Origin: an uncultured Candidatus Saccharibacteria bacterium
Lineage (GTDB): Bacteria > Patescibacteriota > Minisyncoccia > Phycocordibacterales > JABMNX01
Direction of reading: 5' to 3'
NCBI GenBank assembly: GCA_964575755.1
Contig: CAZNRH010000001.1
Coordinates: 17,100 to 81,099 of the forward strand
DNA length: 64,000 bases
Part shown: positions 6,639 through 23,478 of the stretch, one piece after another
Position numbering within the stretch: the first letter of the stretch is position 1
Layout of the letters: each line of letters begins with the position of its first letter
Program-made: the position numbers and the translations under genes
The notes under the pieces: generated by a model
What the model saw: the letters and a program-made list of their open reading frames with translations, nothing else
What the model was told of the DNA's origin: nothing
The model's database searches: none

Positions 6639-6678
6639 AAAACCCATGATCTTTAAGCTAAAAACTAGCACCTAACCA

Positions 6679-7710: not shown

Positions 7711-8314
7711 CAAACTTCTTATATTTAAAATGATCCTACTTAAAATTAGTAGGAAAGATCCAGTGTATGAACTTTTTATAAAAAATAAGAAGACTCTTGA
7801 TGTTGCGTGTGGGGAAGGTAATCTTCTTAAGAATGATAAAGAAAATATATACGGAATAGACATAAACAAAACACTTCTCGAACAGTTAAAAAACGAAGGA
7901 TTAAAAGTAAAATATTCAGATGTAACTAAAATTGATTTTGAAGATAGTGTATTTGATGTAGTACATTGCAGTAATATTATAGAGCACCTTGATCCAGAAT
8001 CTGCTCATAAAATGTTTCAAGAAATGAACAGGGTATTAAAACCAGAAGGAGTGATTATTCTTATAACTCCAACAGAAAAAACAATCTGGAATACCTTTGG
8101 ACATATAAAGCCGTATACACCCCAATCAATCAAAAAACTTTTACGTAAAGTAAGCCTAGAATCATTCGATTCCATACAAGGCCTTCGAATAGAGAATGTT
8201 GTGTATTATGGTTCATGGGGATGGAATAAGTTCACATTTCTTTACTCAAGCCTTATGGCAAACCTCACCCCATTTATGAGAGGTTTATATATAATGACAA
8301 TTAAAAAATATTAG
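7703..8314 (+). CDS. Class I SAM-dependent methyltransferase
   Basis: Motif I LDVACGEGNLL and post-I VVHCSNIIEHL...RVLKPEGVIIL. Confidence 0.7.
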   Translation: MSNKLLIFKMILLKISRKDPVYELFIKNKKTLDVACGEGNLLKNDKENIYGIDINKTLLEQLKNEGLKVKYSDVTKIDFEDSVFDVVHCSNIIEHLDPESAHKMFQEMNRVLKPEGVIILITPTEKTIWNTFGHIKPYTPQSIKKLLRKVSLESFDSIQGLRIENVVYYGSWGWNKFTFLYSSLMANLTPFMRGLYIMTIKKY

Positions 8315-8316
8315 GT

Positions 8317-9078
8317 ATGAATACAAAACACTCGTTTCCAAAAAACTATTTTAAAAGTGGGGTAAATACTAAAGTACAGAGCAAGGAAGAGTGTCTAGTT
8401 AATACTCCTGCGTTTCGAAGAACTTTTGTAGAGTTCATTGAGGCTTTGCCTAAAGACGCTGTTGTTCTTGACGCTGGGTGTGGCGGCGGAAAATTCTCTA
8501 GGAAGATTATTTCTTTGCGTCCAGATATCAAAATATATGCAATAGATATTAGTGATGTAGAAGATGTTTTGCCTAAGCAAATTACTTTTGTTCAAGGTTC
8601 TGTTGAAGATTTGAGAGATTATTACGAGGAGGGATTCTTTGATGCCGTTGTTTGTTTCCATGTATTAGAGCACTTGTTATATCCGATGTTAGCTATGAGT
8701 AGTTTTAAAAGCGTGTTAAAGAATGGCGGGAAAATTTATCTAGAAACTCCAAACTGGTCTCGGGGACTTGTTCCGTTTTTAGATACATATTTCTGGAATG
8801 ATTATACTCATATTAGAATTTTTACAAAAAAAACAATACGTAACTTATTTGAAGACTATGATTATAAAATACGCACCTTAATATCGGTCTCAAGTATGAC
8901 ACTTTTCACACGAAATGATTCGGTAAAAAAAATTAGTAATCTGTATAAAAAAGAAAAAGACAATAAAGGAAGTGTTTTTTCTTTCTTTAAAAGCTTTATT
9001 ACAAAGTCGCTTGCTCGAATAATTAGTGCTTTCTTGAAGGACGTCATTGTAATTATTGCTGATAGCGTTAAAAAATGA
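8317..9078 (+). CDS. Class I SAM-dependent methyltransferase
   Basis: VLDAGCGGGKFS motif I and DAVVCFHVLEHL motif. Confidence 0.7.
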   Translation: MNTKHSFPKNYFKSGVNTKVQSKEECLVNTPAFRRTFVEFIEALPKDAVVLDAGCGGGKFSRKIISLRPDIKIYAIDISDVEDVLPKQITFVQGSVEDLRDYYEEGFFDAVVCFHVLEHLLYPMLAMSSFKSVLKNGGKIYLETPNWSRGLVPFLDTYFWNDYTHIRIFTKKTIRNLFEDYDYKIRTLISVSSMTLFTRNDSVKKISNLYKKEKDNKGSVFSFFKSFITKSLARIISAFLKDVIVIIADSVKK

Positions 9079-10142
9079 AAAGAGAAGTAAAAAGGGTTAT
9101 ATATTTCAATAGTGGAGCAGTTGGAGAATTTCTTATGACGTTGTTTTTTATGATGAATATTAAGTCAGATCCTGCCAGCGACTCGCCAGAGTTCATAGTA
9201 TTTGTGCAGAAGAATAAAGGTGTTTTGATTGAACTAGCTGAGTTATTTTTCCCTTCTGTTAAAATAATCATTATAAATAAGAGGGATTTCATACATGGAG
9301 GGTTCAGTATTTTACGGTACATGTTTTCAAAAAACTGTATTGTGACACAGATGACCTTTGGGCAAGAGCGCACCATAGTAAAGGTTCTCGCACATCTCAT
9401 GGCTTTACGTAGTGGAAGTGTCTATATTGGTTGCAATGATGGTGTCAAGGTGAATAAGTATCTTTACTCACGTTTCTTTAACTTTAATCCAGATATATTA
9501 TTTTATGAGACTATGAATGAAATAGTAAAAGAGCTTGGTTTCATCCCTCATATTTCTTTCCCATATTTTAAGAGAGTTAAAGACCTTAGTAAGACAGAGC
9601 AGATAATATTAGAGAAATATGTTCTAAAAGAAAATAATTATCTCGTCCTGCATCCATTTGCGGCGAATTCACATCGTTCTTTCCCTGCTAGACGTTGGAA
9701 TGATATCATCAATAGTGTACTTAACGAACATAGTGACATAAAGATAGTTGTAACTGGTGCTCCTTCAGACGATAGCTTCGCTAGGGATATTTTATCAGGA
9801 ATCAATGATGAAAGAATTGTGAACCTTGTAGGAGTATTATCCATGGATGAACTTGTTTCTGTAATTAAACAGGCAAGTCTTTTTATAGGTGTTGATTCAG
9901 GAATTACGCACTTAGCTGGGGTACTACAAAAAAAGAGCGTGGTAATTGGTAATTATTCGAACCCTTGCTGGTTACCAGTATATAATAAACAAGCTGTCAT
10001 TCTTTTAAATCGCGACAGATGCGTTTGTAGTGGCAGAAAGACAGGGGATTGCTTCGTTCTCGATGGAGGTAATAAATATTACAGATGTATGATGGACATA
10101 AAAGATGAGAATATACTTAATTCTATACATCGGGTTTTGTAA
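9075..10142 (+). CDS. Glycosyltransferase family 9 (heptosyltransferase-like)
   Basis: LVLHPFAANSHRSFPARRWNDI...VGVLSMDELVSVIKQASLFIGVDSGITHLAGVL matches the GT9 signature (K.Wp...l.G...e...gk.sl.el.ali..a.l.vg.DSG.mHlAaA). Cys-rich C-terminus. Confidence 0.55.
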   Translation: MKREVKRVIYFNSGAVGEFLMTLFFMMNIKSDPASDSPEFIVFVQKNKGVLIELAELFFPSVKIIIINKRDFIHGGFSILRYMFSKNCIVTQMTFGQERTIVKVLAHLMALRSGSVYIGCNDGVKVNKYLYSRFFNFNPDILFYETMNEIVKELGFIPHISFPYFKRVKDLSKTEQIILEKYVLKENNYLVLHPFAANSHRSFPARRWNDIINSVLNEHSDIKIVVTGAPSDDSFARDILSGINDERIVNLVGVLSMDELVSVIKQASLFIGVDSGITHLAGVLQKKSVVIGNYSNPCWLPVYNKQAVILLNRDRCVCSGRKTGDCFVLDGGNKYYRCMMDIKDENILNSIHRVL

Positions 10143-10243
10143 TTAGTGCATGCTTTTTATGCTCGACCGTTGATACTTGTTACTTTTTCTTTCAAGTTCA
10201 TGTTTAAGAGGTTTATAGACTACTAAGTTAATCAAAGATATTT

Positions 10244-11344
10244 ATGAGTGACAGCAAAGAAAAGAATGTTATTTCATTATATATACCAAAATACTTGATT
10301 CAAGACGAAGGATATCATTACTCTATATTACTGTACCCTTTTTGGGGAGTGCAAAACATGAAAGACAGGTTTGCAAGTATTGAGACGTTTAAAAGACAAA
10401 ATTTTGATTCCTCGTATTACAGTCTTACTGAAGACAGTGATTCCGCAGATTATGTATTTCTGCCATACAGTTATTGGTATCTTATGAGACGTAACCCTAA
10501 ATTGATTTCGTTATACATGAAGGAAGCTAGGTTGCTAAACAAACCACTTTTGATAGATGCAATTGGAGATTCGATGAAAGAAATCACTATTCCAAATAGT
10601 GTAGTTTTACGATATGCGTCATATAGGAAAATTCTAAAGGATAACGATGTTATAGTACCAGTTTTTTCAGATGATTTGCTAGTAGCGCATAAAGGAGGAG
10701 AGCTTATAATAAAAGAAAAATCTAAGAAACCTATTATTGGGTTTAGCGGATGGGTTTCGTTTACCTTTTTAACGTTACCACGTTCGTATATTAGAAATGC
10801 GCACTTGCTTTTTTTAGGAATGTTTATACCATACTTTAGAGCACGTATAAAAGGAATTTTCCTTCGTAAGAAGGTCCTTAATATATTAAAGAAATCAAAA
10901 TTGATTGTACCTAACTTTCAAGAGAGAGAATCATACTCAGGAAATTCAAAAACAGCAAAAGGTGATGTAAATATATTACGCAGGGAATTTGTTCAAAATA
11001 TTCTAGAGTCAGATTATACATTATGTATACGAGGAGATTCTAATCAGTCCACTCGCTTTTTTGAAGTACTATCTTTGGGTAGGATTCCGATTTTTGTGGA
11101 CACTGACATACCACTACCTTTAGAAGATAAAATAAACTACAAAGAGTTTTGTATTTTTGTCGACTATCGAGATATCGACAGAATTGATAAAATTATTAAC
11201 GAGTTTCACAATTCTATTTCATTTAATGAATTTGAAAATATGCAGAGAAAAGCCCGTAAGGCTTATGAGATGTATTTAAGGATGGACGTATATACAAAAT
11301 ACCTCATGGAGATTCTAAAAGAAAAGTCTAAAAATAAGGCTTGA
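10244..11344 (+). CDS. Exostosin-like (GT47-like) glycosyltransferase, putative
   Basis: CIRGDSNQSTRFFEVLSLGRIPIFVDTDIPLPLEDKINYKEFCIFVD resembles the exostosin C-terminal motif (RL.EAL..GCIPVI..D...LPF...iDw..fsv.v). Confidence 0.4.
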   Translation: MSDSKEKNVISLYIPKYLIQDEGYHYSILLYPFWGVQNMKDRFASIETFKRQNFDSSYYSLTEDSDSADYVFLPYSYWYLMRRNPKLISLYMKEARLLNKPLLIDAIGDSMKEITIPNSVVLRYASYRKILKDNDVIVPVFSDDLLVAHKGGELIIKEKSKKPIIGFSGWVSFTFLTLPRSYIRNAHLLFLGMFIPYFRARIKGIFLRKKVLNILKKSKLIVPNFQERESYSGNSKTAKGDVNILRREFVQNILESDYTLCIRGDSNQSTRFFEVLSLGRIPIFVDTDIPLPLEDKINYKEFCIFVDYRDIDRIDKIINEFHNSISFNEFENMQRKARKAYEMYLRMDVYTKYLMEILKEKSKNKA

Positions 11345-11376
11345 TATAGTCTTTATTGACAGCTATACTCACTTCC

Positions 11377-13032
11377 ATGAACATACTCGCTATAAATCAG
11401 ATTCCAAGCCAAATTTCATGGCAGCACGATAGTGCGGCAGCTTTAGTTATGGATGGTAAATTTATAGCCACAGCTGAAGAAGAGCGTTTTAATCGCCTTC
11501 GTCATGCTAGGGGATATCCTAAATTAGCTGTTGAATATTGTTTAAAAGAGGGTGGTATTAAAATGAGAGATGTTGATATTATAGCCGTAGCATACGATCC
11601 ACTAGCTTTTGTTAAGACTGGAAGGATAAACTTATACCCAACAAACTTTATTAAAGATATAGTAAATTATATTTTCTTTGCTATATATCTACATGACTTA
11701 AAAAAGCAATGTGGAGCAAGGGTTGAGTATATAAATCACCATCTATCACATGCTGCGAGTGCATATCGTTGCTCTGGGTTTAAAGACGCAAATATATTAA
11801 CCATTGATGGATCAGGAGAAACAGAAAGTTTTGCTTTCTTTAAAGGGAAAGGAGGAAAATTAGAGAGAGTGTGGGACATACCTCTAGGTGGGAGATTTAC
11901 GGAGAAGAAGTGGGGTTCAATTGGTCTCGTATATTCTCGTCTTACTAACTTCTTGAATCTCGGAGTACACGGAGAAGGAAAAACAATGGGACTAGCAAGT
12001 TATGGGGAACCAAAATATGATTTTTCGACAATTTTAAATATTAAAGATCATAAACATTACAAAATAGATCGCAGAAACATAGAAAAGTTGTACGGAAATC
12101 TAGAAAGGAAAGATGGTGAAGAATTAACCCAAGAACATAAAGACTTAGCAGCGAGCCTACAAAAAGCACTAGAAGATTCAGTTGTGAATCTGGCTAGAGA
12201 GGCGTATGAAAAAACTGGTATTAGGAATTTTTGCTTGGCTGGTGGGGTCACGCTTAACTGTAATACTAATAGTAAGCTTTTGGAGCAGGATTTTTGTGAC
12301 AAGTTATTTATACAACCAGCAGCACATGATGGGGGAATATCACTTGGTGCAGCATTGGAAGTCTCTTATATAGTAGGGGACAACCCAGACTTTAATCTTA
12401 TTCATGCATATTGGGGGCCAGGGTTCTCAAATGAAGAAATAGAAGAGGTTCTTAAAAACGCAAAAGTAGAGTATAAATATCATAATAATATTGAAGAAAT
12501 TACTGCAAAATATGTAACAGACGGTAATATGGTCGGTTGGTTTCAAGGACGTATGGAAATGGGTCCAAGAGCTTTGGGTAACAGGACGATTCTTGCCGAT
12601 CCGACGATAAAAGATATAGCAGATAAGGTAAATGTCGAAATAAAACACAGAGAAGTATGGAGACCTTTCGCACCCTCTGTTGCTGAAGAAAGTGCGACAA
12701 AATTCTTTGAAGGAGTAGATAAGGCAAAAGACAGCCCTTTCATGCTACATACTTTTTATATAAAAGATAAATACAAAGATACTTTCCCTGCAATTACTCA
12801 TGTAGATGGCAGTAGTAGGATACAAACAGTGAGAAAAGAACAAAATGAAAAATATTATAAACTTCTAAAGGAAATAGAGAAGATTAATGGTTATCCAATG
12901 ACTTTGAATACCTCATTTAATGACAATGGTGAGCCAATTGTGTGTACTCCAAGAGACGCTCTTCGTTGTTTCTTCTCAACAGGCTTCGATGTTTTAGTAA
13001 TCGGGGATTATCTTGTAAAGAAAAATGGATAA
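11377..13032 (+). CDS. Carbamoyltransferase (NodU/CmcH/TobZ family)
   Basis: N-terminus MNILAINQ...HDSAAALV.DGK.IA.AEEERFNR.RHARGYP...HHLSHAASAY is the hallmark of the O-carbamoyltransferase kinase-like domain, followed by a large C-terminal domain. Start moved to the ATG at 11377. Confidence 0.8.
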   Translation: MNILAINQIPSQISWQHDSAAALVMDGKFIATAEEERFNRLRHARGYPKLAVEYCLKEGGIKMRDVDIIAVAYDPLAFVKTGRINLYPTNFIKDIVNYIFFAIYLHDLKKQCGARVEYINHHLSHAASAYRCSGFKDANILTIDGSGETESFAFFKGKGGKLERVWDIPLGGRFTEKKWGSIGLVYSRLTNFLNLGVHGEGKTMGLASYGEPKYDFSTILNIKDHKHYKIDRRNIEKLYGNLERKDGEELTQEHKDLAASLQKALEDSVVNLAREAYEKTGIRNFCLAGGVTLNCNTNSKLLEQDFCDKLFIQPAAHDGGISLGAALEVSYIVGDNPDFNLIHAYWGPGFSNEEIEEVLKNAKVEYKYHNNIEEITAKYVTDGNMVGWFQGRMEMGPRALGNRTILADPTIKDIADKVNVEIKHREVWRPFAPSVAEESATKFFEGVDKAKDSPFMLHTFYIKDKYKDTFPAITHVDGSSRIQTVRKEQNEKYYKLLKEIEKINGYPMTLNTSFNDNGEPIVCTPRDALRCFFSTGFDVLVIGDYLVKKNG

Positions 13033-13894
13033 AAATTTTAATATTGATTTTATAGGAGTTGGTTTTTCTCGTTGTGGCACTACGTGGATTGCTAAATGTT
13101 TACAGGAGCATCCAGAGATTTGCACGCCAGAATGGAAAGAGACTCATTTCTTTGATTTTGACTATAATTACAATAAAGGGCTAGATTTCTATAAATCTTT
13201 TTTTAAGGATTGTGAAGGAAAAGTCACAGGAGAATATTGCCCTGAATATATTTATGAAGAGAAAGCACTTCAAAGGATAAAGAAACATTTTCCTAATGCT
13301 AAAATTATCGTCTCTGTTCGTAATCCAACTGATCGTGCATTCTCTCATTTTTTATACGGTAAAAGAAAAAATAAATACGCAAATGAATTCAGTGAATTAT
13401 TTAAAACAGATCCTCGTGAAGTAATTGATAGAAGTAAGTATGCAGAATATATAACTACGGCGTATAAATATTTTGCTCCGAAGAACGTACTCATAGTTGT
13501 TCACGATGACTATAAAAATAATCCGAAAGAATTTATACAAAACATGTATAAGTTTCTTGAAGTAGATGGTGAATTTATACCACCATCGCTATTAATTGAG
13601 ATGAATAAATCAAAAGATTTACGGTATAAATTTAATTGGTTTGAACAATTATTTACAGATAGAATGAGAAAAAAGAAGCGCTTATTTTGGAGAATTATAA
13701 TAGGAGTTTTGAAGTTCTTTAAGATTAGCTCACTTCTTATTTTTTTAAGAGGGGAAAATAAAAACACTAATTCTTCTAACGAAGATGAGTTTATTTCAAA
13801 TAACGACAGAAATAGATTAAGAAAAATATATAAAAATGATATCGAAAGCCTAGAAAAAATATTAAAAAGAGACTTAAGTGTATGGAAAAATTAA
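13025..13894 (+). CDS. Sulfotransferase family protein
   Basis: 5'-PSB motif GVGFSRCGTTWIAKCL and 3'-PB motif VRNPTDRAFSHF. Confidence 0.7.
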   Translation: MDKNFNIDFIGVGFSRCGTTWIAKCLQEHPEICTPEWKETHFFDFDYNYNKGLDFYKSFFKDCEGKVTGEYCPEYIYEEKALQRIKKHFPNAKIIVSVRNPTDRAFSHFLYGKRKNKYANEFSELFKTDPREVIDRSKYAEYITTAYKYFAPKNVLIVVHDDYKNNPKEFIQNMYKFLEVDGEFIPPSLLIEMNKSKDLRYKFNWFEQLFTDRMRKKKRLFWRIIIGVLKFFKISSLLIFLRGENKNTNSSNEDEFISNNDRNRLRKIYKNDIESLEKILKRDLSVWKN

Positions 13895-15039
13895 AAAATC
13901 CAAACAGAAATATCTTTCTTATATATCAAGGACGTTTTCCTAGTGAAATGGCCGCAGCCCTGTTTGCTGCAAAAAGTTGCGAGTCCTTTGCTGAAGTTGA
14001 CAATAAAGTAACAATGTTAGTTCCACGCAGATTAGGTAGAGTTAAAGATGATCCTTTTAAATACTATAAAATTAAGAATAATTTTAAAGTAGTACATCTC
14101 CCAGTTATTGATTTATTCAAAGTTCCATTCTTAAATTATGTAGCATTTGTTTTGAATCACATTACGTTCGCGGTATCGTGTCTAGTTTACTTGCTTTTGC
14201 GTGCCAATAAAGAAGATGTTATTTATTCAAATGAAACGTTACCACTACTTCTCCCTGCTTATTTTTTTAAGAATTCATTATATGAAGTACATAATTATCC
14301 AGAAAGAAATCTCTTCATGTATAAAAGACTTTTTGCACACATGAGATGGATTCTGGTAACTAATAGGTGGAAATTAGAAAAATTAGTAGAGCAATTTAAT
14401 TTACCACAAGGGAAATCATTTTATGAGCCAAATGCTGTTGAAATAGAGGAATTCGATATCCCAGTTTTTAAAGAGGAAGCCCGTAGGAAACTCAACCTCT
14501 CAATTAATAAAAAACTCGTAGTCTATACAGGGCATCTATATAGCTGGAAGGGAGCTGATACACTTGCGCATGCCGCTACATTACTTACAGATGACTACTC
14601 AGTACTCTTTGTGGGCGGAACGAAACATGACCTTAAAAGGTTTAAAGATGAATTTGGCAGTATAACGAATGTACAGTTTATTGGACATCGTCCACATCCA
14701 GAGGTTCCATTATGGCAAAAAGCAGCAGATGTATTAGTTCTTCCAAACACTGCAAAAGAAGATATTTCAAAATACTACACTTCTCCAATGAAGCTTTTTG
14801 AATATATGGCGAGTAAGCGTCCAATAGTTGCTTCGCGTATACCCTCTATTGTTGAAATCCTTAATGATGAGAATGCTGTTTTGGTTGAGCCAGATAACCA
14901 CAAAGCACTTTCTGATGGTATTATGAAGGTGTTAAACGATGGATCATTGTCAAAACGTCTTAATAGTAAAGCTTTTAAGGACATACAGTTTCACTCGTGG
15001 CACGCACGCGCCTTGCGCATAATGAAGGAAATAAATTAA
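13882..15039 (+). CDS. Glycosyltransferase family 4
   Basis: VVYTGHLYSWKGADTL ... EYMASKRPIVASRIPSIVEIL. Confidence 0.75.
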   Translation: MEKLKNPNRNIFLIYQGRFPSEMAAALFAAKSCESFAEVDNKVTMLVPRRLGRVKDDPFKYYKIKNNFKVVHLPVIDLFKVPFLNYVAFVLNHITFAVSCLVYLLLRANKEDVIYSNETLPLLLPAYFFKNSLYEVHNYPERNLFMYKRLFAHMRWILVTNRWKLEKLVEQFNLPQGKSFYEPNAVEIEEFDIPVFKEEARRKLNLSINKKLVVYTGHLYSWKGADTLAHAATLLTDDYSVLFVGGTKHDLKRFKDEFGSITNVQFIGHRPHPEVPLWQKAADVLVLPNTAKEDISKYYTSPMKLFEYMASKRPIVASRIPSIVEILNDENAVLVEPDNHKALSDGIMKVLNDGSLSKRLNSKAFKDIQFHSWHARALRIMKEIN

Positions 15040-15047
15040 TTACATAT

Positions 15048-15701
15048 ATGCACAAAGAAGATTCTCAATTCATACTAAAACGCTTCGATGATGTAAACAA
15101 ATCAAAGACGTTTACTCATATACTAAAAGAACTTGATCTAGGAAATAAATCAGTTCTAGATATAGGATGCTCCCATGGCGAGTTCCTTGCCCGTTTTGGC
15201 ACTGGGAGTGTTGGGTTGACAATTTCCCCTGAAGAAGTAGATTATGGAAAAGGGAAAGGTCTAGATATACGAGTTGGAAACATTGAGTCTAGTGATGTTC
15301 CGGTGAGTGAAACATTCGATGTAATTTTTGCAAATAACATACTTGAACACCTATATTCTCCTCACGGATTCCTAGTTGATATTAAGAAATATTTGAAGGA
15401 AGATGGGGTCTTGATACTAGGAGTTCCAATAATTCCAAAAGTCACTAGTTTACTTCGTTTGAAGAAATTCAGAGGAAGTCTTGCGGTGAGTCATATTAAT
15501 TTTTTTACTACCAAGACTCTCGAGAAGACTATTGAACGTGGAGGATGGAATATACTTCAATCCCGCAGTTTTAGGTTCTTTATTCGTATTTTTGACAGAA
15601 TCCTATATAGTATAACTCCACACATATACGTAGTTGCTACACTAAATAAAGACTTTAAATATCATGAGAAGCGATTAAAAGAGCTGGAGGGGTATAAATA
15701 A
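15048..15701 (+). CDS. Class I SAM-dependent methyltransferase
   Basis: VLDIGCSHGEFL motif I and DVIFANNILEHLYSPHGFL. ATG at 15048 chosen to avoid overlap with the upstream gene. Confidence 0.7.
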   Translation: MHKEDSQFILKRFDDVNKSKTFTHILKELDLGNKSVLDIGCSHGEFLARFGTGSVGLTISPEEVDYGKGKGLDIRVGNIESSDVPVSETFDVIFANNILEHLYSPHGFLVDIKKYLKEDGVLILGVPIIPKVTSLLRLKKFRGSLAVSHINFFTTKTLEKTIERGGWNILQSRSFRFFIRIFDRILYSITPHIYVVATLNKDFKYHEKRLKELEGYK

Positions 15702-15707
15702 GATTCT

Positions 15708-16541
15708 ATGTTTAAAAGGCTTTCAATTACATTTTCCGATATATCAAAGATTTTTTCAAAAAGATATCTGACTATTAGCGGAAAGATCAAGCTACTACAC
15801 ACGTATTGCTTAATCACGTTTAAAAGATTTATTGATGGTAGGTTATTAAAGGTAAAAAAACAAAAATTCCTTTCTTTTGTCGTAGAGTTCGAAAACTTTT
15901 CTGATTTCTATTGGACATTTAAAGAGATATTTATTGACGATGAATATTATTTTAAGTCTGAAAAAGAAGACCCTTTTATTATTGACTGCGGGGGAAATAT
16001 TGGACTAGCAACTCTGTATTTTAAATACTTATATCCAAAGGCTAAGATCCTTGTATTTGAAGCATTTCCAGAAAATGCTAAAATCCTTGGAAAAAATATT
16101 ACACTTAATAACTTAAACGGTGTTGAATTAGTTCAAAAAGCTGTTGGTGATGATGTTGGTGAATTAGAGATGTATGGAGATAATAGAGCTGCAACTATAT
16201 GTAAAGACATGGCAAGTACTCATGATAAAATTAGTAGTGTGAAGGTTCCCATAGTTAAATTATCTGAATATATTAAAGATGATGTGGATTTTCTAAAAAT
16301 GGATATAGAGGGTGCTGAGGGTGATGTGATTATGGAATTATCAGGAAATAATGTACTACATAAAATTAAACAGATAACGATGGAGTACCATACAATTTCT
16401 GGAGGTAACGTATTATCGGATCTTTTATCTTACTTGGAAGATAATAATTTCAAGGTATCGTTTATAAGTAATGTAAACAGGGTTACTGATCTGAATATGA
16501 GAAGTTTTTCTCATATGATGCTTGTGGCTGTGCGTAATTAG
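15708..16541 (+). CDS. FkbM-family methyltransferase
   Basis: IIDCGGNIGLATLYFKYLYPKAKILVFEAFPEN (Methyltransf_21 / FkbM motif). Confidence 0.7.
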   Translation: MFKRLSITFSDISKIFSKRYLTISGKIKLLHTYCLITFKRFIDGRLLKVKKQKFLSFVVEFENFSDFYWTFKEIFIDDEYYFKSEKEDPFIIDCGGNIGLATLYFKYLYPKAKILVFEAFPENAKILGKNITLNNLNGVELVQKAVGDDVGELEMYGDNRAATICKDMASTHDKISSVKVPIVKLSEYIKDDVDFLKMDIEGAEGDVIMELSGNNVLHKIKQITMEYHTISGGNVLSDLLSYLEDNNFKVSFISNVNRVTDLNMRSFSHMMLVAVRN

Positions 16542-16548
16542 TAAATAT

Positions 16549-17382
16549 ATGAAAAATATAATCCATAGGGTAGAAAGGTATTTCTCGGACAGCATACGAA
16601 TCGTTAAAGGTAAAAATTTAAATATATATAAGAAAGTTATACTTTTTTACTACTACACAAAAGTATCTATCGTTAATTTTTTAAATGGAAGAATAATAAA
16701 TTTAAAATCTATTAAGTTTTTGTCATTTCAGATATATTTCGACTCGATTTCAGAACTAGATATGTTGGTAGGGGAAGTGTTTGTCCACGAACCATATCAT
16801 TTTGAATCTACAAAAGATAACCCAGTTATATATGATTGTGGAGGAAATATAGGGATATCTGTTCTATATTTCAAATATTTATATCCCAAGGCTGAAATTA
16901 AAGTTTTTGAACCATCGCCCGAAGTATTTTCTACTCTTCAAAAAAATATAACAAATAATAATTTAGAAAAAGTAGAGGCATATAGTGTTGCTTTATCTGA
17001 TTCCGATGGAATTATTGATATATTTGTTCGCCAAGAAATGTCTCTAGCTACGACGACTGCGGATGAAGAAAGGCATGGTGGAATTAGAGTAAGTGTAGAG
17101 AAAAATAAATTATCGAATTTTATAGAAGGAGATGTGGATTTATTGAAAATGGATGTGCAGTTGTCTGAGGTTGCAGTATTTAATGACTTAGATGTATCGA
17201 GCACTATGAGAAATATCTCTCAGGTAATAATGGAATTTCATTACTCTCCAAGTAGTGAAAAAAATAAACTTTCTGCCATAATTAAAAATTTCGAGAAACA
17301 TAATTTTGATTACAAAATTGAATTCAACGCTGAAAAACTAGATGGTTTCAAAACATATATTATAAATGCTGTTAAAAAATAG
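16549..17382 (+). CDS. FkbM-family methyltransferase (tandem paralog)
   Basis: IYDCGGNIGISVLYFKYLYPKAEIKVFEPSPE. Paralogous to the upstream gene. Confidence 0.7.
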   Translation: MKNIIHRVERYFSDSIRIVKGKNLNIYKKVILFYYYTKVSIVNFLNGRIINLKSIKFLSFQIYFDSISELDMLVGEVFVHEPYHFESTKDNPVIYDCGGNIGISVLYFKYLYPKAEIKVFEPSPEVFSTLQKNITNNNLEKVEAYSVALSDSDGIIDIFVRQEMSLATTTADEERHGGIRVSVEKNKLSNFIEGDVDLLKMDVQLSEVAVFNDLDVSSTMRNISQVIMEFHYSPSSEKNKLSAIIKNFEKHNFDYKIEFNAEKLDGFKTYIINAVKK

Positions 17383-17384
17383 AT

Positions 17385-18752
17385 ATGAAAACAATCCTAA
17401 TAGTCATATCAAAAGACATTATTATAAGAAATATTTTCGACACCGATTTTTGGCCATCTCTAGTAAAAAATATTCTAAATACTCGTATTGTACTTCTTGT
17501 TGAAAAAGAAAAAGTAGAATATTTCCGAGAACGTTTTCGAGATGCGGACGACATTATAGGATATAAGAGAGAATCATATAGTGGATACAACAAGTTCTTA
17601 ATGTTTCTTGTTCGCACAGGAATTCGTTCACATAGCACTACTACATATAGGTGGCGTGCATATAAGCGAGGTCATACAGGTTTGCTGATTACATTGATAA
17701 AGAGCTTGATCTCCCAGACACTCGGTCGTATGCGTTTGTATAAGTATTTTATTCGTATACTCGTGATCCATATGCATATTTCAGATGAAATTAAGAATAT
17801 ATATAATGAAATAAATCCTGATATTATTTTCACTCCTTCTCTTATTGACACTGACTTTGATGTTCCGATTGCAGTTGAAGCGAGAAGGCTAGGAATTCAT
17901 GTGGTTGGTATGGTTCGCAGTTGGGATAATTTGAATAATCACGGATTACTTGCGTTTGTACCAGACAGATTTATTGTACAGAACGCATGGCTTAAAGGAT
18001 CCGCAGAAAAGTTCCAAGCTATACCGAAAGGTTTTATTAAGGATGTTGTTGGACTTCCTCACTATGATTTATATAAAGACACTTCACGATATATAAAATC
18101 TCGAGAAGAATTTTTTACACAATATGGACTTGATCTTAACAAAAAACTTATTCTATTAGGTGGTTCAGATTTTTATTATACAGAGGATGTTTTACCAAAA
18201 GTTATCAATAAGCTTATAGAATCTAAGCAGATTACGGAACCAGTTCAGGTCATATTTCGACCACATCCAGTATCACTTTTTAACATAAAAGAGTATAAAC
18301 TCAACGAGCTCAAGCACATTGCTCTAGACCCAACATTTGTTGATACAGGGACAGCAAAGTTTTCTAATGAAGAAAAATTTGTAAATTTAATGACACACTC
18401 AGATATTATTATAAATATCGCATCAACATTATCTATTGACGGGGCAGTATTCGATACCCCAGTAATTTGTATTAATTTTGACGATTCAGCTAGGAAACTT
18501 TCGAGATGGGAATCAGTTCATCGGTTATATGATACATTTGATCACTATGAACAGCTTGTAAAGACAGGAGGAGTTAGAACACCACAGTCTCACCAAGAGC
18601 TAGCAAAAGATATTAATGATTATTTAAAAGATCCATCAATAGATAAAGAAGGGCGAAAACAAATCCTAGAAAACTTCGTTGAGCCTTTTGATGGTAAAAC
18701 AAGCGAACGTTTAGCTACTATCCTTGTGAAAGAAACTAGTAATATTGTCTAG
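17385..18752 (+). CDS. Putative capsule/teichoic-acid-type polysaccharide biosynthesis transferase (KpsS/KpsC- or TagF-like); family assignment uncertain
   Basis: 455 aa soluble protein in the glycan locus next to nonulosonate genes. Contains an FRPHP motif reminiscent of the Capsule_synth/TagF HP motif. Weak similarity only. Confidence 0.3.
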   Translation: MKTILIVISKDIIIRNIFDTDFWPSLVKNILNTRIVLLVEKEKVEYFRERFRDADDIIGYKRESYSGYNKFLMFLVRTGIRSHSTTTYRWRAYKRGHTGLLITLIKSLISQTLGRMRLYKYFIRILVIHMHISDEIKNIYNEINPDIIFTPSLIDTDFDVPIAVEARRLGIHVVGMVRSWDNLNNHGLLAFVPDRFIVQNAWLKGSAEKFQAIPKGFIKDVVGLPHYDLYKDTSRYIKSREEFFTQYGLDLNKKLILLGGSDFYYTEDVLPKVINKLIESKQITEPVQVIFRPHPVSLFNIKEYKLNELKHIALDPTFVDTGTAKFSNEEKFVNLMTHSDIIINIASTLSIDGAVFDTPVICINFDDSARKLSRWESVHRLYDTFDHYEQLVKTGGVRTPQSHQELAKDINDYLKDPSIDKEGRKQILENFVEPFDGKTSERLATILVKETSNIV

Positions 18753-18834
18753 TTTGCAGATATGTAACCGTTTGATATCATTGAGTGTTATAAGTACTAA
18801 TAATTATGGATAAAAATCAACACACATACGTAAT

Positions 18835-19911
18835 ATGAATAATGAGTTATTTCAAGATTTATTTGTACTAGAGATAGCAAATAATCACTGGGGAGATATA
18901 AACAGAGGACTTCGTATCGTTCGCGAGTATGCACATATAGTAAAGAAGAACGATATTAAAGCAGCTATAAAGCTGCAGATTCGTGACGTGGAGTCTTTTA
19001 TACATAAAGATTATCTTCCAAGCGTAGAAGTTGATAGGGAAAAAGATAAAGAAATTACAAATGCTCCTGGGTCAAGTTCTAGGTATATTAAAAAAACACT
19101 TACTACAAAGCTTTCTAAAGAGAAATTTCAAAAACTAGTCGATGAAATAAAAACACACAACATGATTGTTATAGCAACTCCGTTTGACGAGAAATCAGTT
19201 GATTTATGTGTTGAGCTTGGTGTTGAGATTTTAAAGATAGCGAGTCAAGATGCAAACGACTGGACACTTATAGAAAAAATGGTTTCTGTACATATACCGA
19301 CCATAATATCCAATGGGGGAACTGGAATAAAGGACCTAGATCGCGTTGTTGGTATTTTTAAAGACGAGGACATACCACTTGCAGTTAATCATTGTGTATC
19401 ATTATATCCATCTGAAGACAACGAACTAGACCTTCATCAAATAGATTTTCTTAAAAAGCGTTATCCTAATCATGTTATTGGGTTTTCTACGCATGAATAC
19501 AATGACTGGTACTCATCGGTAATGATGGCATATGCTAAAGGTGCACGCACATTTGAGCGACATGTTGATATAGAGGCAGACGGGATTCCTGTGTCAAAAT
19601 ACTGTTCAATACCACGACAGGTAGATGAGTGGTTTAAGGCGTATCTTAAAGCAAAGGAAATGTGTGGCAGGGAAGGAATGGGTGAGCGTATTATTCCTGA
19701 AAAGGAGCAAGAATATGTTAAAAGTGTTTCCAGAGGAGTTTATGCGTTGAGAGATTTACCTAAAGGGTATACGATAAATAAAGAAGGAATCGATAAAGAT
19801 TTCTATTTTGCGATCCCTCTTCTTAGTAATCAGTATTCTTCACGTGAGATGGGTGATGCAATCGTACTACAAGACCAAGTAAGGGAAAACTCTCCTGTTT
19901 TAAAAAAATAA
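18835..19911 (+). CDS. Nonulosonic (sialic/pseudaminic/legionaminic) acid synthase, NeuB family
   Basis: LEIANNHWGDINRGLRIVREYA...IKLQ, ILKIASQD and a C-terminal SAF-like region. NeuB TIM-barrel signature. Confidence 0.7.
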   Translation: MNNELFQDLFVLEIANNHWGDINRGLRIVREYAHIVKKNDIKAAIKLQIRDVESFIHKDYLPSVEVDREKDKEITNAPGSSSRYIKKTLTTKLSKEKFQKLVDEIKTHNMIVIATPFDEKSVDLCVELGVEILKIASQDANDWTLIEKMVSVHIPTIISNGGTGIKDLDRVVGIFKDEDIPLAVNHCVSLYPSEDNELDLHQIDFLKKRYPNHVIGFSTHEYNDWYSSVMMAYAKGARTFERHVDIEADGIPVSKYCSIPRQVDEWFKAYLKAKEMCGREGMGERIIPEKEQEYVKSVSRGVYALRDLPKGYTINKEGIDKDFYFAIPLLSNQYSSREMGDAIVLQDQVRENSPVLKK

Positions 19912-19915
19912 TTAT

Positions 19916-20821
19916 ATGTTTGATACAGAGAAAAAAATATTTAAAAATGTTCACTGGTCTATTTTTGTACTAGCCGGAGGATTCCTATGGGCCTTGTATA
20001 TTTTTCTAATGAATACTATTGGCTCTACAATTTCTATACTAGGAACGATATTCCTAGTGGTGCTTATTGTTAGTTTAGTACAAGTTGTAGTGGGAGTGCT
20101 ATTTACGGCTCGTTCAGGTTTTCTATTTTTCCCAGGGCAACGTCCGGTGATTGGTTCTATATTACTTGGGATATTAAATGCTTATTCAGTAGTTGTCATA
20201 TTATATCTTTTCGGAATATATGAGCTTTCTGTTGTTACTGTAGCATTCTTTGTTGCACTTACTCTGTTTCCACAGGTGATGATTGAACGTATTTTATCTA
20301 GGAAAACTGGTAATGTAATAACTGCCTTTATTCTTATATTTGTAGGGCTATATGCAATTGTTATGGAAGTTGGCGGCGGATTCCCTAATCTTAATTGGCT
20401 TTGGTTAGCTCTTACACTACCCATTGCGTCAATCGTAGGTGAGGTTATAAATCGTAAAATAGGCTCATCTGCGAGTTTTTCACAATGGGTACACCATCTA
20501 TGGTCTGGTATCCCTGCTTTTTTGATCGCATCCATGTTTTTACTATATTCTTATAGACTTTCTATTGCAGAAGTACTTAGAACCATTGATTCGTCACTAC
20601 TACTACTTTCTGCTACAGCGGGCATTTCTATCGTTGTGTTTATGTTTGTAAGAGGGCGTGCATATATGGCAGGTGGAGATATTGTTCAAAAGAAATTTTT
20701 CATACTCATTCTTTTTTTAACATTACTTCTGGTCTCTAGTGTGATATCAGGCAGTCTAGCAATAGGAGGGTTTATAGCTACCGTGTCGTTACTATTTTCA
20801 TTTCTAGTGTTGTTAAAGTAG
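19916..20821 (+). CDS. Polytopic membrane protein (~10 TM), possible DMT/EamA-like transporter
   Basis: Ten hydrophobic segments. Located between neuB-like and CMP-sugar synthetase genes. No diagnostic motif. Confidence 0.35.
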   Translation: MFDTEKKIFKNVHWSIFVLAGGFLWALYIFLMNTIGSTISILGTIFLVVLIVSLVQVVVGVLFTARSGFLFFPGQRPVIGSILLGILNAYSVVVILYLFGIYELSVVTVAFFVALTLFPQVMIERILSRKTGNVITAFILIFVGLYAIVMEVGGGFPNLNWLWLALTLPIASIVGEVINRKIGSSASFSQWVHHLWSGIPAFLIASMFLLYSYRLSIAEVLRTIDSSLLLLSATAGISIVVFMFVRGRAYMAGGDIVQKKFFILILFLTLLLVSSVISGSLAIGGFIATVSLLFSFLVLLK

Positions 20822-20835
20822 AGTTTGTAAGCATT

Positions 20836-21558
20836 ATGAATACATTTACCTGCGTTATACCAGCTCGATACAAATCAACTCGATTTGAGGGAAAATCACT
20901 TGCAGTGATACATGGTAAATCTATGGTTGTGTGGGTTGCAGAGCATGCCAGTAATGCGTCTAGAGTCTCACTGGCTATAGTGGCCACTGACGATGAACGT
21001 ATTGCTGATGTTGTAGAGGATGCTGGATACAAGGCTGTAAAAACTCCTGATTGTCCTGATGGATCATCTAGGGTTGCTTATGTAGCAAAAAACATTGATG
21101 ATGAGTGGATTTTTGAAATGCAGGGAGACCAGCCTATGGTTACCCCAGAAATCATTGATGATTTTATCCATAGAGCTTGTGTAGCCATAGAAAAGAACCC
21201 AGAAATTGATGTAGTAATTCCATACGCTCCGGCAACTAAAGAGCATACAGATTCTTTAGATGTTTTGAAAGTTGTAAAGACAGAAAGTGACAGGCTTGTA
21301 TTTCAGACACGTCAGCCGATTCATACAGGGTGGCGTACCCTTGGATTATATCTATGGAAAAAGGAAGCACTTTTGAAGTTTGCTGAGTTACCAGTTTCTG
21401 ATATTGAACGCATAGAAGATAGTCACCCAATTCGTTTATATATAAATGATTTCTATGTCCATGGTCTGCTCATTGAAGACACTGCATGGGTTGAAGTCGA
21501 TAGAGAGAGTCAAGTAGTTGAGGTGGAAGAAATAATGAAGAAAAAAGGAATTGTGTAA
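20836..21558 (+). CDS. CMP-nonulosonate / CMP-Kdo cytidylyltransferase (NeuA/KdsB family)
   Basis: CVIPARYKSTRFEGKSLAVIHGKSMVVWV matches the KdsB/NeuA N-terminal motif (IPAR..S.R.P.K.L..I.GK.M). Confidence 0.7.
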   Translation: MNTFTCVIPARYKSTRFEGKSLAVIHGKSMVVWVAEHASNASRVSLAIVATDDERIADVVEDAGYKAVKTPDCPDGSSRVAYVAKNIDDEWIFEMQGDQPMVTPEIIDDFIHRACVAIEKNPEIDVVIPYAPATKEHTDSLDVLKVVKTESDRLVFQTRQPIHTGWRTLGLYLWKKEALLKFAELPVSDIERIEDSHPIRLYINDFYVHGLLIEDTAWVEVDRESQVVEVEEIMKKKGIV

Positions 21559-21599
21559 CTAGCTATAAGTAAACCACTCACTATTTAAGTCTGTAGAAC

Positions 21600-22853
21600 C
21601 TATTTAAGTCTGTAGAACAAATATATAGATACAAATAAATTAGTAAATCGTGTAAGTAGGATACTTGCTATTGCTCCCCATATTCCATAAAGAGGTAATA
21701 AGACCAGAAGTAATCCTATTCTAGTTATTGGGATGATAGTGTTTAGAATGTATAGTTCTCGCTTTTTTGCATGCGCAATAAGGGTTTGTCCAAACAAAGA
21801 TGCTGGAAAGGAAAGAATAATTATTGCAAAAACTTGAGAATACAGCACAGAGTCAATGTATCTTGGAAATATAAATTTATATAAATACGGAGCAATAATA
21901 ATATAAAAAATAAAAAGCAAAACAGAGAAGAAGAATACTATTAGTGCTTTTCTCGGAATTGATGACTTCAACTCTTTGATATCTCTAGTACTAAACTTAG
22001 GTAAAGCAAGACTTTGAAGTATTCCATTAAATACCCCAAATTCCCTTGGTGGGGCCAAAGCAAAGGAGTATATTGCCAAAAGAGCAGGTCCTAAATAGTG
22101 AAACATAAGAAGGTTATCAATATTGTTTCCAATATTGCCAATAAACTTCATTACGCTTAAGTGTTTTGCATACGGTATAGTATGTAAGTCCTCGTTGGTA
22201 TTAGAGACAGGGCGGGTTTTTTTTACGAGAATATGTAAGGATATGCCTATAACAGCACTCGAAAGGAAAAAGATAAGAACAATTATGACTGGATTATTCG
22301 TTAAAAATACCGTGACGATAAGTGCTATTGTAGAAATTACACCACTAATCACTCCATATATAGCACTTGTTTTAAAATCTTTTCTTCCGCGCAGATATGA
22401 ATCAAAAAGAAAAAAGCTTTTTTGTAATGGTAAAAGTACAGCTATAATTAAAAGAATGATAGCTAGTGTATTATTTTCATTTATAAAATAATAAATAGAC
22501 CCAGCTAAACCTATGAAAAACAATAGGATATTCCACTTAAGTAAAGTCTTGAAGCCTGAAAGAAATGAACCTTCGTATCCTTGTGATACAGCACGCACTA
22601 CAACAGACCCCATTCCTGTTAGTGAAAATGCTCCGATGATACCCGCTATTGAGATGGCGAACTTATACGCACCATACGTTTCTTTAGATAAAAGTTTTGC
22701 AAACACCACAGTTAGTGTGATGGCTAAAAGAGAGTTTATTATCTGAGTTGCAGAAAGTACAGAACCGCTCTTGGCAAGGTAGAGCATGTCTGTTTTAGTA
22801 TATTTCTCGCTCCAACGCATGAGTCGGTATAGTTTATTTTTAGCTGTTTTCAT
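21600..22853 (-). CDS. Polysaccharide flippase (Wzx-like, MOP superfamily)
   Basis: 417 aa, about 12 TM helices, charged N-terminus. Confidence 0.6.
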   Translation of the reverse strand: MKTAKNKLYRLMRWSEKYTKTDMLYLAKSGSVLSATQIINSLLAITLTVVFAKLLSKETYGAYKFAISIAGIIGAFSLTGMGSVVVRAVSQGYEGSFLSGFKTLLKWNILLFFIGLAGSIYYFINENNTLAIILLIIAVLLPLQKSFFLFDSYLRGRKDFKTSAIYGVISGVISTIALIVTVFLTNNPVIIVLIFFLSSAVIGISLHILVKKTRPVSNTNEDLHTIPYAKHLSVMKFIGNIGNNIDNLLMFHYLGPALLAIYSFALAPPREFGVFNGILQSLALPKFSTRDIKELKSSIPRKALIVFFFSVLLFIFYIIIAPYLYKFIFPRYIDSVLYSQVFAIIILSFPASLFGQTLIAHAKKRELYILNTIIPITRIGLLLVLLPLYGIWGAIASILLTRFTNLFVSIYLFYRLK

Positions 22854-23478
22854 TAAGTTTATATATTAAGGTGACACCGATAGAGGCTTCTAATTTATAT
22901 CCATATCGAGAAAGAAAGGAGTCTATGCCTTCTTTGTTTGAATTTTCGACGGATATTACAGTTGGTTTTATAGACCAGTTGTGTGATTTTAATACTTCTA
23001 GGTCTAAACCTTCCACATCAATGTTCATGTAGTCTATATGTGATATCTTATACTTTTTTATAATATCCCCAAGGGGAAGAGATTGTATTTCTTTTGTGCC
23101 AAGAAAGGTTGGATATTTTTTACTCATTAAGTCTTTTGCAACATTTTCGTTTAGAGTATTGTACGCTCCGTCTGAGAACATAAAATACTTATTTTTTCCA
23201 ATGTCTCCTGTCGCAAAGTTTGCAAAAGCATCTCTTTTTCGAAAGATTCTATATAGTATTTTCAGGTTAGGATTTGGGTCGATAGAAAGTCCATTCCATC
23301 CTTTTAAATAAAGAGCATGTGTGTTTGAGTACAAGATGGGTTGATAGGCACCAACATCAACATAAATCCCTTCCTTTTTACCTTTAAAGAGTGATTGGAT
23401 AACAACATCTTCGCCAAACTGACTAAATGACTTGTTGTATCTAAATCGCCTAAAAAACGTCTTTATAATATCTTTCAT
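22840..23478 (-). CDS. FkbM-family methyltransferase
   Basis: SQFGEDVVIQSLFKGKKEGIYVDVGAYQPILYSNTHALYLKGWNGLSIDPNP (FkbM N-terminal motif sqfGqD...fvDvGAn). Confidence 0.55.
   Translation of the reverse strand: MKDIIKTFFRRFRYNKSFSQFGEDVVIQSLFKGKKEGIYVDVGAYQPILYSNTHALYLKGWNGLSIDPNPNLKILYRIFRKRDAFANFATGDIGKNKYFMFSDGAYNTLNENVAKDLMSKKYPTFLGTKEIQSLPLGDIIKKYKISHIDYMNIDVEGLDLEVLKSHNWSIKPTVISVENSNKEGIDSFLSRYGYKLEASIGVTLIYKLNENS

Follow-up and report, generated by a model that had tools for sequence, protein, structure and literature searches.

The DNA analysed here is a 64-kb stretch from an uncultured bacterium (contig CAZNRH010000001.1 of assembly GCA_964575755.1, positions 17,100 to 81,099; hereafter the window), and its subject is a glycan locus of ~24 kb at ~1981-25750. 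The open reading frames (ORFs) of the window were assigned by Pfam, NCBIfam and PDB searches (Table 1). The central part of the locus, 9075-21558, consisted of 12 tightly packed ORFs on the + strand; most of them overlapped or were spaced by 14 bases or fewer in the ORF listing, and the largest gaps were 101 bases before 10244 and 82 bases before 18835. A flippase and a Wzy_C-family protein, the pair that marks a Wzx/Wzy-dependent locus, were both present, and murB and then secA lay downstream of the gene for the Wzy_C protein, which carries tetratricopeptide repeats (TPR). GC content was 0.348 in the glycan locus compared with 0.386 in its flanks, and 0.37 in the window overall. We consider it probable (roughly 0.6) that this is a Wzx/Wzy_C-type surface-glycan locus of a Parcubacteria-like bacterium of the candidate phyla radiation (CPR), with predicted carbamoyl, sulfate and methyl decoration and a CMP-ulosonate module.

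An earlier note on this DNA had described a glycan-tailoring block at 9075-21558. The searches confirmed a block with the gene content that it described, and the gene order was conserved in other genomes. All three FkbM and three class I S-adenosylmethionine (SAM) methyltransferases that it counted exist, but the class I genes starting at 7703 and 8317 and the FkbM gene at 22840 lie outside that range, as do the flippase (21600) and the O-antigen ligase/TPR protein (23513). Its list for the range was otherwise borne out, except that it omitted the GT4 glycosyltransferase gene (13882) and the genes for a 455-aa (17385) and a 301-aa (19916) protein.

Table 1. Predicted genes of the glycan locus, in window coordinates, with the match or fold on which each assignment was based.
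Feature	Coordinates	Strand	Basis
GT4 genes, four	1981-3222, 3267-4442, 5107-6036, 6679-7710	+	Pfam Glycos_transf_1
Class I SAM methyltransferases, two	7703-8314, 8317-9078	+	Pfam Methyltransf_11/23/25
GT9 (heptosyltransferase-like)	9075-10142	+	PF01075
GT47/exostosin-like, C-terminal nucleotide-sugar domain	10244-11344	+	PF03016
O-carbamoyltransferase, TobZ/NodU/CmcH type	11356-13032	+	Carbam_trans_N + Carbam_trans_C
PAPS-type carbohydrate sulfotransferase	13025-13894	+	PF00685
GT4 glycosyltransferase	13882-15039	+	Pfam
Class I methyltransferase	14997-15701	+	Pfam
FkbM methyltransferase	15708-16541	+	Pfam
FkbM methyltransferase	16522-17382 (public gene call, L001, starts at 16549)	+	Pfam
455-aa TagF/BFO_1060-like GT-B protein	17385-18752	+	NCBIfam BFO_1060, Glyphos_transf
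NeuB-family synthase, 3g8r-type subfamily	18835-19911	+	PF03102
301-aa orphan 10-helix DMT-fold transporter	19916-20821	+	Predicted fold
KdsB-like CTP_transf_3 cytidylyltransferase	20836-21558	+	PF02348
Wzx-type flippase, convergent	21600-22853	-	PF01943, PF13440
Third FkbM methyltransferase	22840-23478	-	PF05050, 62 bits
Wzy_C membrane protein (O-antigen ligase/polymerase/O-oligosaccharyltransferase family) with C-terminal TPR	23513-25750	+	PF04932 61 bits, TPR families

Domain and motif matches supported credible carbamoyl-, sulfo- and methyltransferases for glycan assembly and tailoring. The predicted carbamoyltransferase contained both domains of the TobZ/NodU/CmcH type over its full length (Carbam_trans_N 179 bits, Carbam_trans_C 230 bits; Kae1-like and YrdC-like), matched the structures of TobZ (320 bits, full length), NovN (305) and GdmN (291), and carried the metal motif INHHLSHAASAY (HHLxHAASAY type) in alignment with TobZ. 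It reached only 154.7 bits against the NodU equivalog model of NCBIfam, with a cut-off of 1000, and is not a NodU ortholog. The carbamoyltransferase was 84% identical in the related loci L007, L009 and L158, where neighbouring cluster genes were merely 54-65% identical; this could reflect unusually strong constraint or recent transfer of a single gene. The sulfotransferase, of the type that uses 3'-phosphoadenosine 5'-phosphosulfate (PAPS), matched PF00685 with 80 bits, and its nearest structures were 3rnl, a bacterial sulfotransferase, and heparan-sulfate 3-O-sulfotransferases. All three sulfotransferase motifs were found: the 5'-phosphosulfate-binding (5'-PSB) motif GVGFSRCGTTW, the catalytic-base motif KETHFF and the 3'-phosphate-binding (3'-PB) motif RNPTDRAFSHF, which were kept in four orthologs as GVGxSR(C/S)GTTW, KExHFF and RNPx(D/E)RAFSHF. 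Profile searches reassigned neither the carbamoyltransferase nor the sulfotransferase, so that both earlier calls stand.

PAPS sulfotransferases usually have a catalytic Lys in the 5'-PSB loop; here an Arg (SRCGTT, residues 14-21) took its place, as it did in all four orthologs. The C-terminal third of the sulfotransferase held a conserved hydrophobic stretch, LFWRIIIGVLKFFKI, which could be a membrane anchor. In L176, a fused PUA_2/ATP-sulfurylase/APS-kinase protein (PAPS synthase, L176:19281-20918) was encoded ~6 kb from an equivalent cluster with two sulfotransferases, with VTC, DUF4956 and CotH genes in between, indicating that such organisms can supply PAPS. Two further glycosyltransferase calls of the earlier note held as partial-domain matches. 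The GT9 protein matched PF01075 with 71 bits over residues 180-316, its C-terminal domain only, and scored ~52 bits against lipopolysaccharide (LPS) heptosyltransferase equivalogs with cut-offs of 135-185. The GT47-like protein matched PF03016 with 57.6 bits at profile positions 217-292 only, and its PDB matches to EXT1/2/EXTL3 were marginal.

The same genes recurred in other genomes (related loci are given here by L number; L009 is from Wolfebacteria NORP156, L176 from a Pacebacteria genome and L055 is non-CPR). The core order of carbamoyltransferase, sulfotransferase, GT4, methyltransferase, two FkbM genes, 455-aa protein, NeuB-like synthase and cytidylyltransferase was the same in L007/L158 and L009, was found with rearrangements in L010, L169/170 and L176, and was partly kept in L171, L174, L175, L088 and L089. 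This recurrence across several other Parcubacteria genomes indicates that the grouping is not due to chance. The class I methyltransferase gene and the two FkbM genes (14997-17382) were kept in L007/L009/L158. The GT4 protein encoded at 13882 was 53-56% identical to its counterparts in L007, L009, L088, L089 and L158, and in the closest related loci its gene followed the carbamoyltransferase gene or the carbamoyltransferase-sulfotransferase pair. The sulfotransferase was missing from the L088, L089 and L174 versions of the locus, and the carbamoyltransferase from those of L171 and L175. The GT9 and GT47-like genes were found in none of the related CPR loci and were specific to the window genome; the only match to the GT47-like gene was a weak one (28% identity) in L055. 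The Wzx gene occupied the same place in L007, L009, L168, L169, L171 and L175. The Wzy_C-TPR gene preceded murB and secA in L171/L172 as in the window, and preceded secA in L007/L175; an obg and gatB flank was common to the window, L007 and L175. Its flanks are shared and its content varies, so that the locus behaves as a variable island of glycan genes with a fixed place on the chromosome.

The 455-aa protein, the NeuB-like synthase and the cytidylyltransferase formed an adjacent trio in ~10 independent CPR loci, and their longest contigs were of equal size in 17 database clusters, a signal of co-occurrence. In the CPR loci the gene for the 455-aa protein stood directly 5' of that for the NeuB-like synthase; L176 was the exception, with a second sulfotransferase gene between them. 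The earlier note had read the synthase and the cytidylyltransferase as a NeuB/NeuA nonulosonic-acid pathway. A NeuB-family synthase and a CTP_transf_3 enzyme are indeed encoded, but the synthase fell below the NeuB and PseI cut-offs and the cytidylyltransferase was nearest to KdsB. The synthase matched PF03102 with 120 bits, the NCBIfam model NeuB_NnaB (TIGR03569) with 105.7 bits (cut-off 399.65) and PseI (TIGR03586) with 107.8 bits (cut-off 340.25), which does not place it in either equivalog. Its closest structure was 3g8r (191 bits), with NeuB/PseI structures at 62-70 bits. The searches thus neither confirmed it as specific to nonulosonates nor moved it to another aldolase family; it grouped with the 3g8r clade, a large and uncharacterised NeuB subfamily.

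The histidines of the GFSTHEY and FERH motifs of the synthase aligned with those of 3g8r and of the NeuB structure 6ncs, and the KLQ and KIAS motifs were conserved. H220, H243, K46 and K134 were invariant in the subfamily, so that the metal His pair and the phosphoenolpyruvate (PEP) Lys of a NeuB catalytic domain were present, as was an invariant basic insert, SRYxKKT. No PF08666 (SAF/AFP-like) domain was matched in the window protein; two close homologs have one, and the alignment with 3g8r ran on through the C-terminal region. The two signature motifs of the subfamily were found in at least 590 GTDB species, with 53-57% identity across phyla, and in the nearest genome of the GTDB species set, a Candidatus Wolfebacteria metagenome-assembled genome, the NeuB-like protein was 64% identical. 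A literature search returned nothing relevant on 3g8r or on NeuB together with KdsB in Patescibacteria.

Neighbours of the synthase subfamily were clustered over 84 loci; the 25 largest clusters were viewed and the nine largest annotated with Pfam. In the non-CPR loci, the synthase gene was accompanied by an adjacent gene for a ~600-aa thiamine diphosphate (ThDP) enzyme (64/84), NDP-sugar dehydratases/epimerases (55/84), GT2 (40/84), DegT (38/84), an adjacent HAD_2 phosphatase (33/84), FkbM (29/84) and a sugar nucleotidyltransferase (24/84). No NeuC, PseB/C/H/G or LegB/C/H/G was present among the 25 largest clusters, and none of the NeuC/PseB-type upstream enzymes whose search the earlier note had suggested was found in the 64-kb window. 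The ThDP enzyme of the non-CPR cassettes (L004-L087; e.g., L033:11192-13027 and L005:9454-14394) was acetolactate-synthase-like; methyltransferases and GtrA occurred there too, with a DHQ-synthase-like gene in ~10 loci and an FGGY kinase in 7. Such a cassette has the look of a pathway, so far uncharacterised, that leads to a cyclitol or to a sugar that is branched or of higher carbon number; there the ThDP enzyme may use what the NeuB-like protein makes.

Enzymes of the CTP_transf_3 (KdsB/NeuA) family make CMP-keto-acid sugars. The cytidylyltransferase of the window matched PF02348 with 95 bits and the KdsB subfamily model NF003952 with 164.8 bits (cut-off 193), and at 96 bits it stayed under the cut-off of 155 of the KdsB equivalog TIGR00466. 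Its 13 best PDB matches were all KdsB (E 1e-24 to 1e-14); by comparison, PseF gave 29.5 bits and NeuA structures E values of 4e-4 to 9e-4, and membership of the NeuA type was not found. It belonged to a discrete CPR clade of ~64 clusters, whose nearest outgroup was bona fide KdsB at 32-38% identity, with a sharp drop in score between the two. A NUDIX hydrolase gene followed the cytidylyltransferase gene in L171 (L171:11116-11550), where other loci have a gene of the haloacid dehalogenase (HAD) type, and a PhyH-family dioxygenase gene (L171:5646-6551) adjoined the TagF-like gene of the same locus, which has a fusion of NeuB and a drug/metabolite transporter (DMT). Both enzymes may provide further steps of ulosonate modification or turnover.

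With bona fide KdsB as the nearest relatives of the cytidylyltransferase, one alternative is that the module makes the C8 acid 3-deoxy-D-manno-octulosonic acid (Kdo): the NeuB-like protein would replace KdsA and condense PEP with arabinose 5-phosphate, the HAD protein of related loci would replace KdsC, and the CMP-Kdo formed by the KdsB-like enzyme would enter a capsule-like glycan of an LPS-free organism. A HAD phosphatase gene follows the cytidylyltransferase gene in L007, L009, L175, L169, L174 and L176, the SRYxKKT insert of the synthase subfamily could bind a sugar phosphate, and pentose-phosphate enzymes are encoded in the window. However, neither the window nor the related loci examined had an arabinose-5-phosphate isomerase (SIS/CBS), the cytidylyltransferase scored under every KdsB cut-off and forms its own clade, and the synthase subfamily often occurs in Proteobacteria alongside their own KdsA and KdsC, with the ThDP enzyme and not KdsB as its partner. 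We therefore regard this alternative as unlikely. The sub-cut-off NeuB/PseI scores, the KdsB-like cytidylyltransferase and the lack of NeuC/Pse genes together indicate that the sugar of the window is best described as a putative CMP-activated 3-deoxy-2-ulosonic acid, with its chain length left unspecified; ketodeoxynonulosonic acid (Kdn) made from mannose 6-phosphate and a Kdo-like C8 acid are the candidates that we infer.

The 301-aa protein had no Pfam match at E≤5, and its homologs matched EamA only at E 0.004-0.009, under the gathering score, so that no significant EamA match was found. An exhaustive search among 1.84 billion representatives found only 19 clusters of its family. Its AlphaFold2 (AF2) model (pLDDT 89, pTM 0.87) had ten helices, and the top 35 PDB fold matches were all DMT proteins (TM-scores 0.51-0.66), which assigns the protein to the ten-transmembrane-helix DMT fold; they included the CMP-sialic acid transporter, SLC35B1, Vrg4, LicB (TM 0.62), TPT and YddG. 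Natural fusions joined the DMT protein to the cytidylyltransferase (P0126) and the NeuB-like protein to the DMT protein (P0130), with partners of the same subfamilies as in the window. A search with the family's hidden Markov model placed the DMT gene between the synthase and cytidylyltransferase genes in L010, L174 and L176, as in the window; in L168 it adjoined the cytidylyltransferase gene, with a C-terminal fragment of NeuB just upstream. A HAD phosphatase gene, a DMT gene or both were present in all 11 CPR loci examined: DMT only in the window, L168, L171/172 and L010, HAD only in L007/158, L008/9, L175 and L011, and both in L169/170, L174 and L176. The last three refute the idea that HAD and DMT are mutually exclusive alternatives.

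In the fold search the CMP-sialic acid transporter had the best E-value, and SLC35B1, Vrg4, LicB, TPT and YddG had equal or higher TM-scores, showing that the search does not discriminate between substrates. It is conceivable, and in our view distinctly unlikely, that CPR/Parcubacteria have a lineage-specific pathway for an undescribed CMP-ulosonic acid that works through the new NeuB subfamily and an orphan DMT protein folded like the nucleotide-sugar transporters of eukaryotes; a DMT protein that moves the CMP-sugar across the membrane, and does not import a precursor, would put glycosylation outside the cytoplasm. If that were true, the target could be the bacterium's own surface or that of a host cell, and bacteria would for the first time be seen to have an equivalent of the CMP-sialic acid transporter system of the Golgi, acting on a sulfated, carbamoylated glycan.

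The 455-aa protein matched the NCBIfam family BFO_1060 with 51.1 bits, below the cut-off of 200, over profile positions 28-361 of 365. Its AF2 model (pLDDT 93) showed a GT-B fold, and a conserved RPHP motif aligned with KMHP of TarL, which gives it both the fold and the HP phosphate-binding motif of such transferases. All 28 sampled members of its family matched BFO_1060 (best E 6e-24), 26 matched Glyphos_transf and none Epimerase_2. Compared with PDB, the family profile found TarL (E 1.6e-6) and the TagF-like capsule polymerase Cps3D, and no epimerase at E≤10. In Tannerella forsythia, genetic evidence shows that members of the BFO_1060 family are needed to transfer pseudaminic (Pse) or legionaminic (Leg) acid derivatives, donated as CMP-sugars, onto the O-glycan (PMC5420450). 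We propose that the 455-aa protein is the CMP-ulosonate transferase.

These matches bear on a reading of the module as a canonical set of the sialic-acid type, which would take the 455-aa protein for a hydrolysing UDP-GlcNAc 2-epimerase like NeuC, have the synthase make N-acetylneuraminic acid (Neu5Ac) or an acid of the Pse/Leg type, take the cytidylyltransferase for NeuA and yield a host-like cap. The family tallies and PDB matches above argue against the epimerase, which would also leave the module without a transferase. The synthase, at 106-108 bits, is far from the PseI/NeuB cut-offs of 340-400, its subfamily in more than 70 other genomes never stood with NeuC/Pse/Leg genes, and the cytidylyltransferase is a far better match to KdsB than to NeuA/PseF. 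We consider this reading very improbable. The keto-sugar part is not the standard sialic-acid pathway, and the host mimicry that the earlier note had thought possible found no support in the analysis. Least probable of all is a teichoic-acid-like phosphodiester polymer, with the TagF-like protein as a CDP-alditol phosphotransferase, the cytidylyltransferase making its CDP-linked donor and the NeuB-like protein functionally unrelated: Pfam puts the 455-aa protein in Glyphos_transf, its profile matches the ribitol-phosphate polymerase TarL and a few family members weakly match the TarB and TarL models of NCBIfam, but BFO_1060 (28/28) fits better than TarB/TarL (3-5/28), the cytidylyltransferase is of the CTP_transf_3 type (CMP-keto-acid sugars) and not of the TagD/TarI type, no genes for glycerol 3-phosphate or ribitol 5-phosphate supply were present, and the DMT fusions join the NeuB-like protein to the same functional unit as the cytidylyltransferase.

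We return to the reading as a Wzx/Wzy_C-type surface-glycan locus with a CMP-ulosonate module. Observed for it were the family assignments, catalytic motifs, synteny across CPR genomes, fused genes and two folds (DMT and GT-B); we infer in what order the steps run, which sugars act as donors and acceptors, which ulosonic acid is made, what the transporter carries and in which direction, and what the last acceptor is. The GT4, GT9-like and GT47-like transferases would build a lipid-linked oligosaccharide at the cytoplasmic face. The TobZ-type enzyme would O-carbamoylate the glycan from carbamoyl phosphate and ATP via carbamoyl-AMP, the PAPS-type enzyme would O-sulfate it, and the FkbM and class I SAM enzymes would methylate it. 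The synthase would condense PEP with an aldose or aldose phosphate to a 3-deoxy-2-ulosonic acid, which the KdsB-like enzyme would activate as a CMP-sugar and the TagF/BFO_1060-like enzyme would transfer onto the glycan. The DMT protein most likely imports a precursor sugar or the free ulosonic acid, much as LicB feeds LicC, and such import would suit CPR bacteria, which live by scavenging. The HAD protein of related loci may dephosphorylate an intermediate and so free the product, or it may supply the free aldose. Wzx would flip the finished unit, and the Wzy_C-TPR protein would polymerise it or join it to an acceptor on the surface. Since the Wzy_C domain also occurs in O-oligosaccharyltransferases, a protein could serve as this acceptor. 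The module follows the predicted logic of a nonulosonate synthase, CMP activation and a transferase, yet its enzymes and the carbamoyltransferase fall outside the NeuB/PseI, NeuA, KdsB and NodU families as their models define them.

Several points weigh against this reading. The whole case is drawn from the sequence of an uncultured organism. No initiating phosphoglycosyltransferase (Bac_transf or MraY/WecA type) was matched among the scanned window ORFs, although it could lie elsewhere. Within the 64-kb window, scans and tblastn found no HAD phosphatase, tblastn found no ATP sulfurylase/APS kinase (PAPS synthase) and no counterpart of the other unassigned ORFs of related loci, and no source of carbamoyl phosphate was found. 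The synthase subfamily has no characterised member, and in other phyla it has the ThDP neighbour and no CTP_transf_3 partner; what it makes there may have no role as a building block of glycans. Nucleotide-sugar transporters and DMT importers of small molecules are not told apart by the fold search.

The four upstream GT4 genes had counterparts with 38-50% identity 5' of the carbamoyltransferase gene in L158. A MazF/PemK-like toxin gene (4491-4904, E 9e-13) was inserted among them, together with a pair of Phd-like antitoxin and ParE-like toxin genes (6142-6638), both under the Pfam gathering score; in L158, a syntenic locus, the four GT4 genes showed no toxin-antitoxin genes between them. Directly 5' of the glycan locus, 394-1821 encodes a 475-aa protein with lamin-tail and PKD domains, a possible surface protein and potential glycosylation target. 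The scan of 6001-26000 gave 74 promoter-like sites (83.5 expected from shuffled sequence) and 10 terminator-like sites (8.4 expected); both counts were at or near the shuffled expectation and hence uninformative. An Rfam scan of the window found a single tRNA only.

Elsewhere in the window, the housekeeping genes (SecA, Obg, GatB, a split transketolase, RpiB, Rpe, release factor (RF), S2 and EF-Ts) are a set typical of a small CPR/Patescibacteria genome. Two ORFs resembling IS200/Y1 transposases (33639-34304 and 47358-48029) flanked a region with two giant ORFs (37501-41451 and 43465-47175), one encoding 1316 aa without a Pfam match and the other 1236 aa with Laminin_G_3, SPRY and DUF7483 domains. 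GC content climbed to 0.485 at 44-46 kb, compared with 0.37 for the window, and the transposase-flanked segment may be mobile or horizontally acquired. A 111-aa ORF (31582-31917) with a strong match to Phage_holin_4_2 (E 6e-31) lay between genes for an FMN reductase and a VTT-domain membrane protein.

CPR bacteria are extremely small, live mostly as episymbionts and have for the most part not been cultured, and how they build their surface and attach to hosts is poorly known. The searchable literature library gave no paper that links Patescibacteria or CPR to nonulosonic acids, nor any that deals with sulfotransferases in Parcubacteria. The predicted methylated, carbamoylated, sulfated and ulosonate-capped glycan offers targets in the form of mass-spectrometric signatures and enzymes for expression. 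Three uncharacterised families travel together here, the 3g8r-type NeuB synthase, the KdsB-like cytidylyltransferase clade and the orphan DMT transporter, and once the substrate of the synthase is assigned, at least 590 species of many phyla would gain an annotation for their homologs.

Rhizobial Nod factors are tailored with carbamoyl groups by NodU/NolO, with sulfate by NodH (together with NodPQ) and with methyl groups by NodS/NoeI. The earlier note had drawn this parallel, and the chemistry is shared: the three decorations are the same, and carbamoylation and sulfation use enzymes of the same superfamilies. It remains an analogy only, since the carbamoyltransferase reached 155 bits against a NodU cut-off of 1000, the NodC/NodB/NodA backbone machinery is absent here and the sulfotransferase is nearest to heparan-sulfate 3-OST-like enzymes. 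In the Kdn pathway of Bacteroides thetaiotaomicron, a Kdn-9-phosphate synthase, a HAD phosphatase and a CMP-Kdn synthetase act on a sugar phosphate of central metabolism, and the pathway therefore needs no dedicated upstream enzymes. This three-enzyme set matches the gene content of L007, L009 and L175; the HAD protein of the CPR loci is, however, of the capped HAD_2 type and not KdsC-like C0, and the window is without a HAD gene. The lic operon of Streptococcus pneumoniae and Haemophilus (LicB choline importer, LicC, LicD) likewise combines a DMT permease, a cytidylyltransferase and a glycan-decorating transferase, but here the activated compound would be a keto-acid sugar instead of phosphocholine, no kinase is present and the DMT protein belongs to an orphan family without a significant sequence match to LicB.

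The pairs of NeuB/PseI/LegI with NeuA/PseF/LegF resemble the window module in the NeuB fold family, the metal His, the PEP Lys and the CTP_transf_3 neighbour; the module differs in its 3g8r-clade synthase, its KdsB-like cytidylyltransferase, the absence of NeuC/PseBCFGH/LegBCHG and the DMT protein as a third component. In gene content the locus resembles the Wzx/Wzy loci for O-antigen, capsule and S-layer glycans, including general O-glycosylation loci like the one of T. forsythia, which also have GT-B transferases, methyltransferases, Wzx, a Wzy_C protein and a CMP-activated acidic sugar with a BFO_1060-type transferase, and share the low GC content and the variable content between conserved flanks (murB and secA here). 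In the CPR host, by contrast, the window showed no initiating phosphoglycosyltransferase or chain-length regulator, the Wzy_C protein bears TPR, and the acidic-sugar genes are not Pse/Leg/Neu orthologs. The Wzx/Wzy_C surface-glycan locus is thus a known type, and what is unusual in this one is the recurrent decoration set and the non-canonical, CPR-specific ulosonic-acid module.

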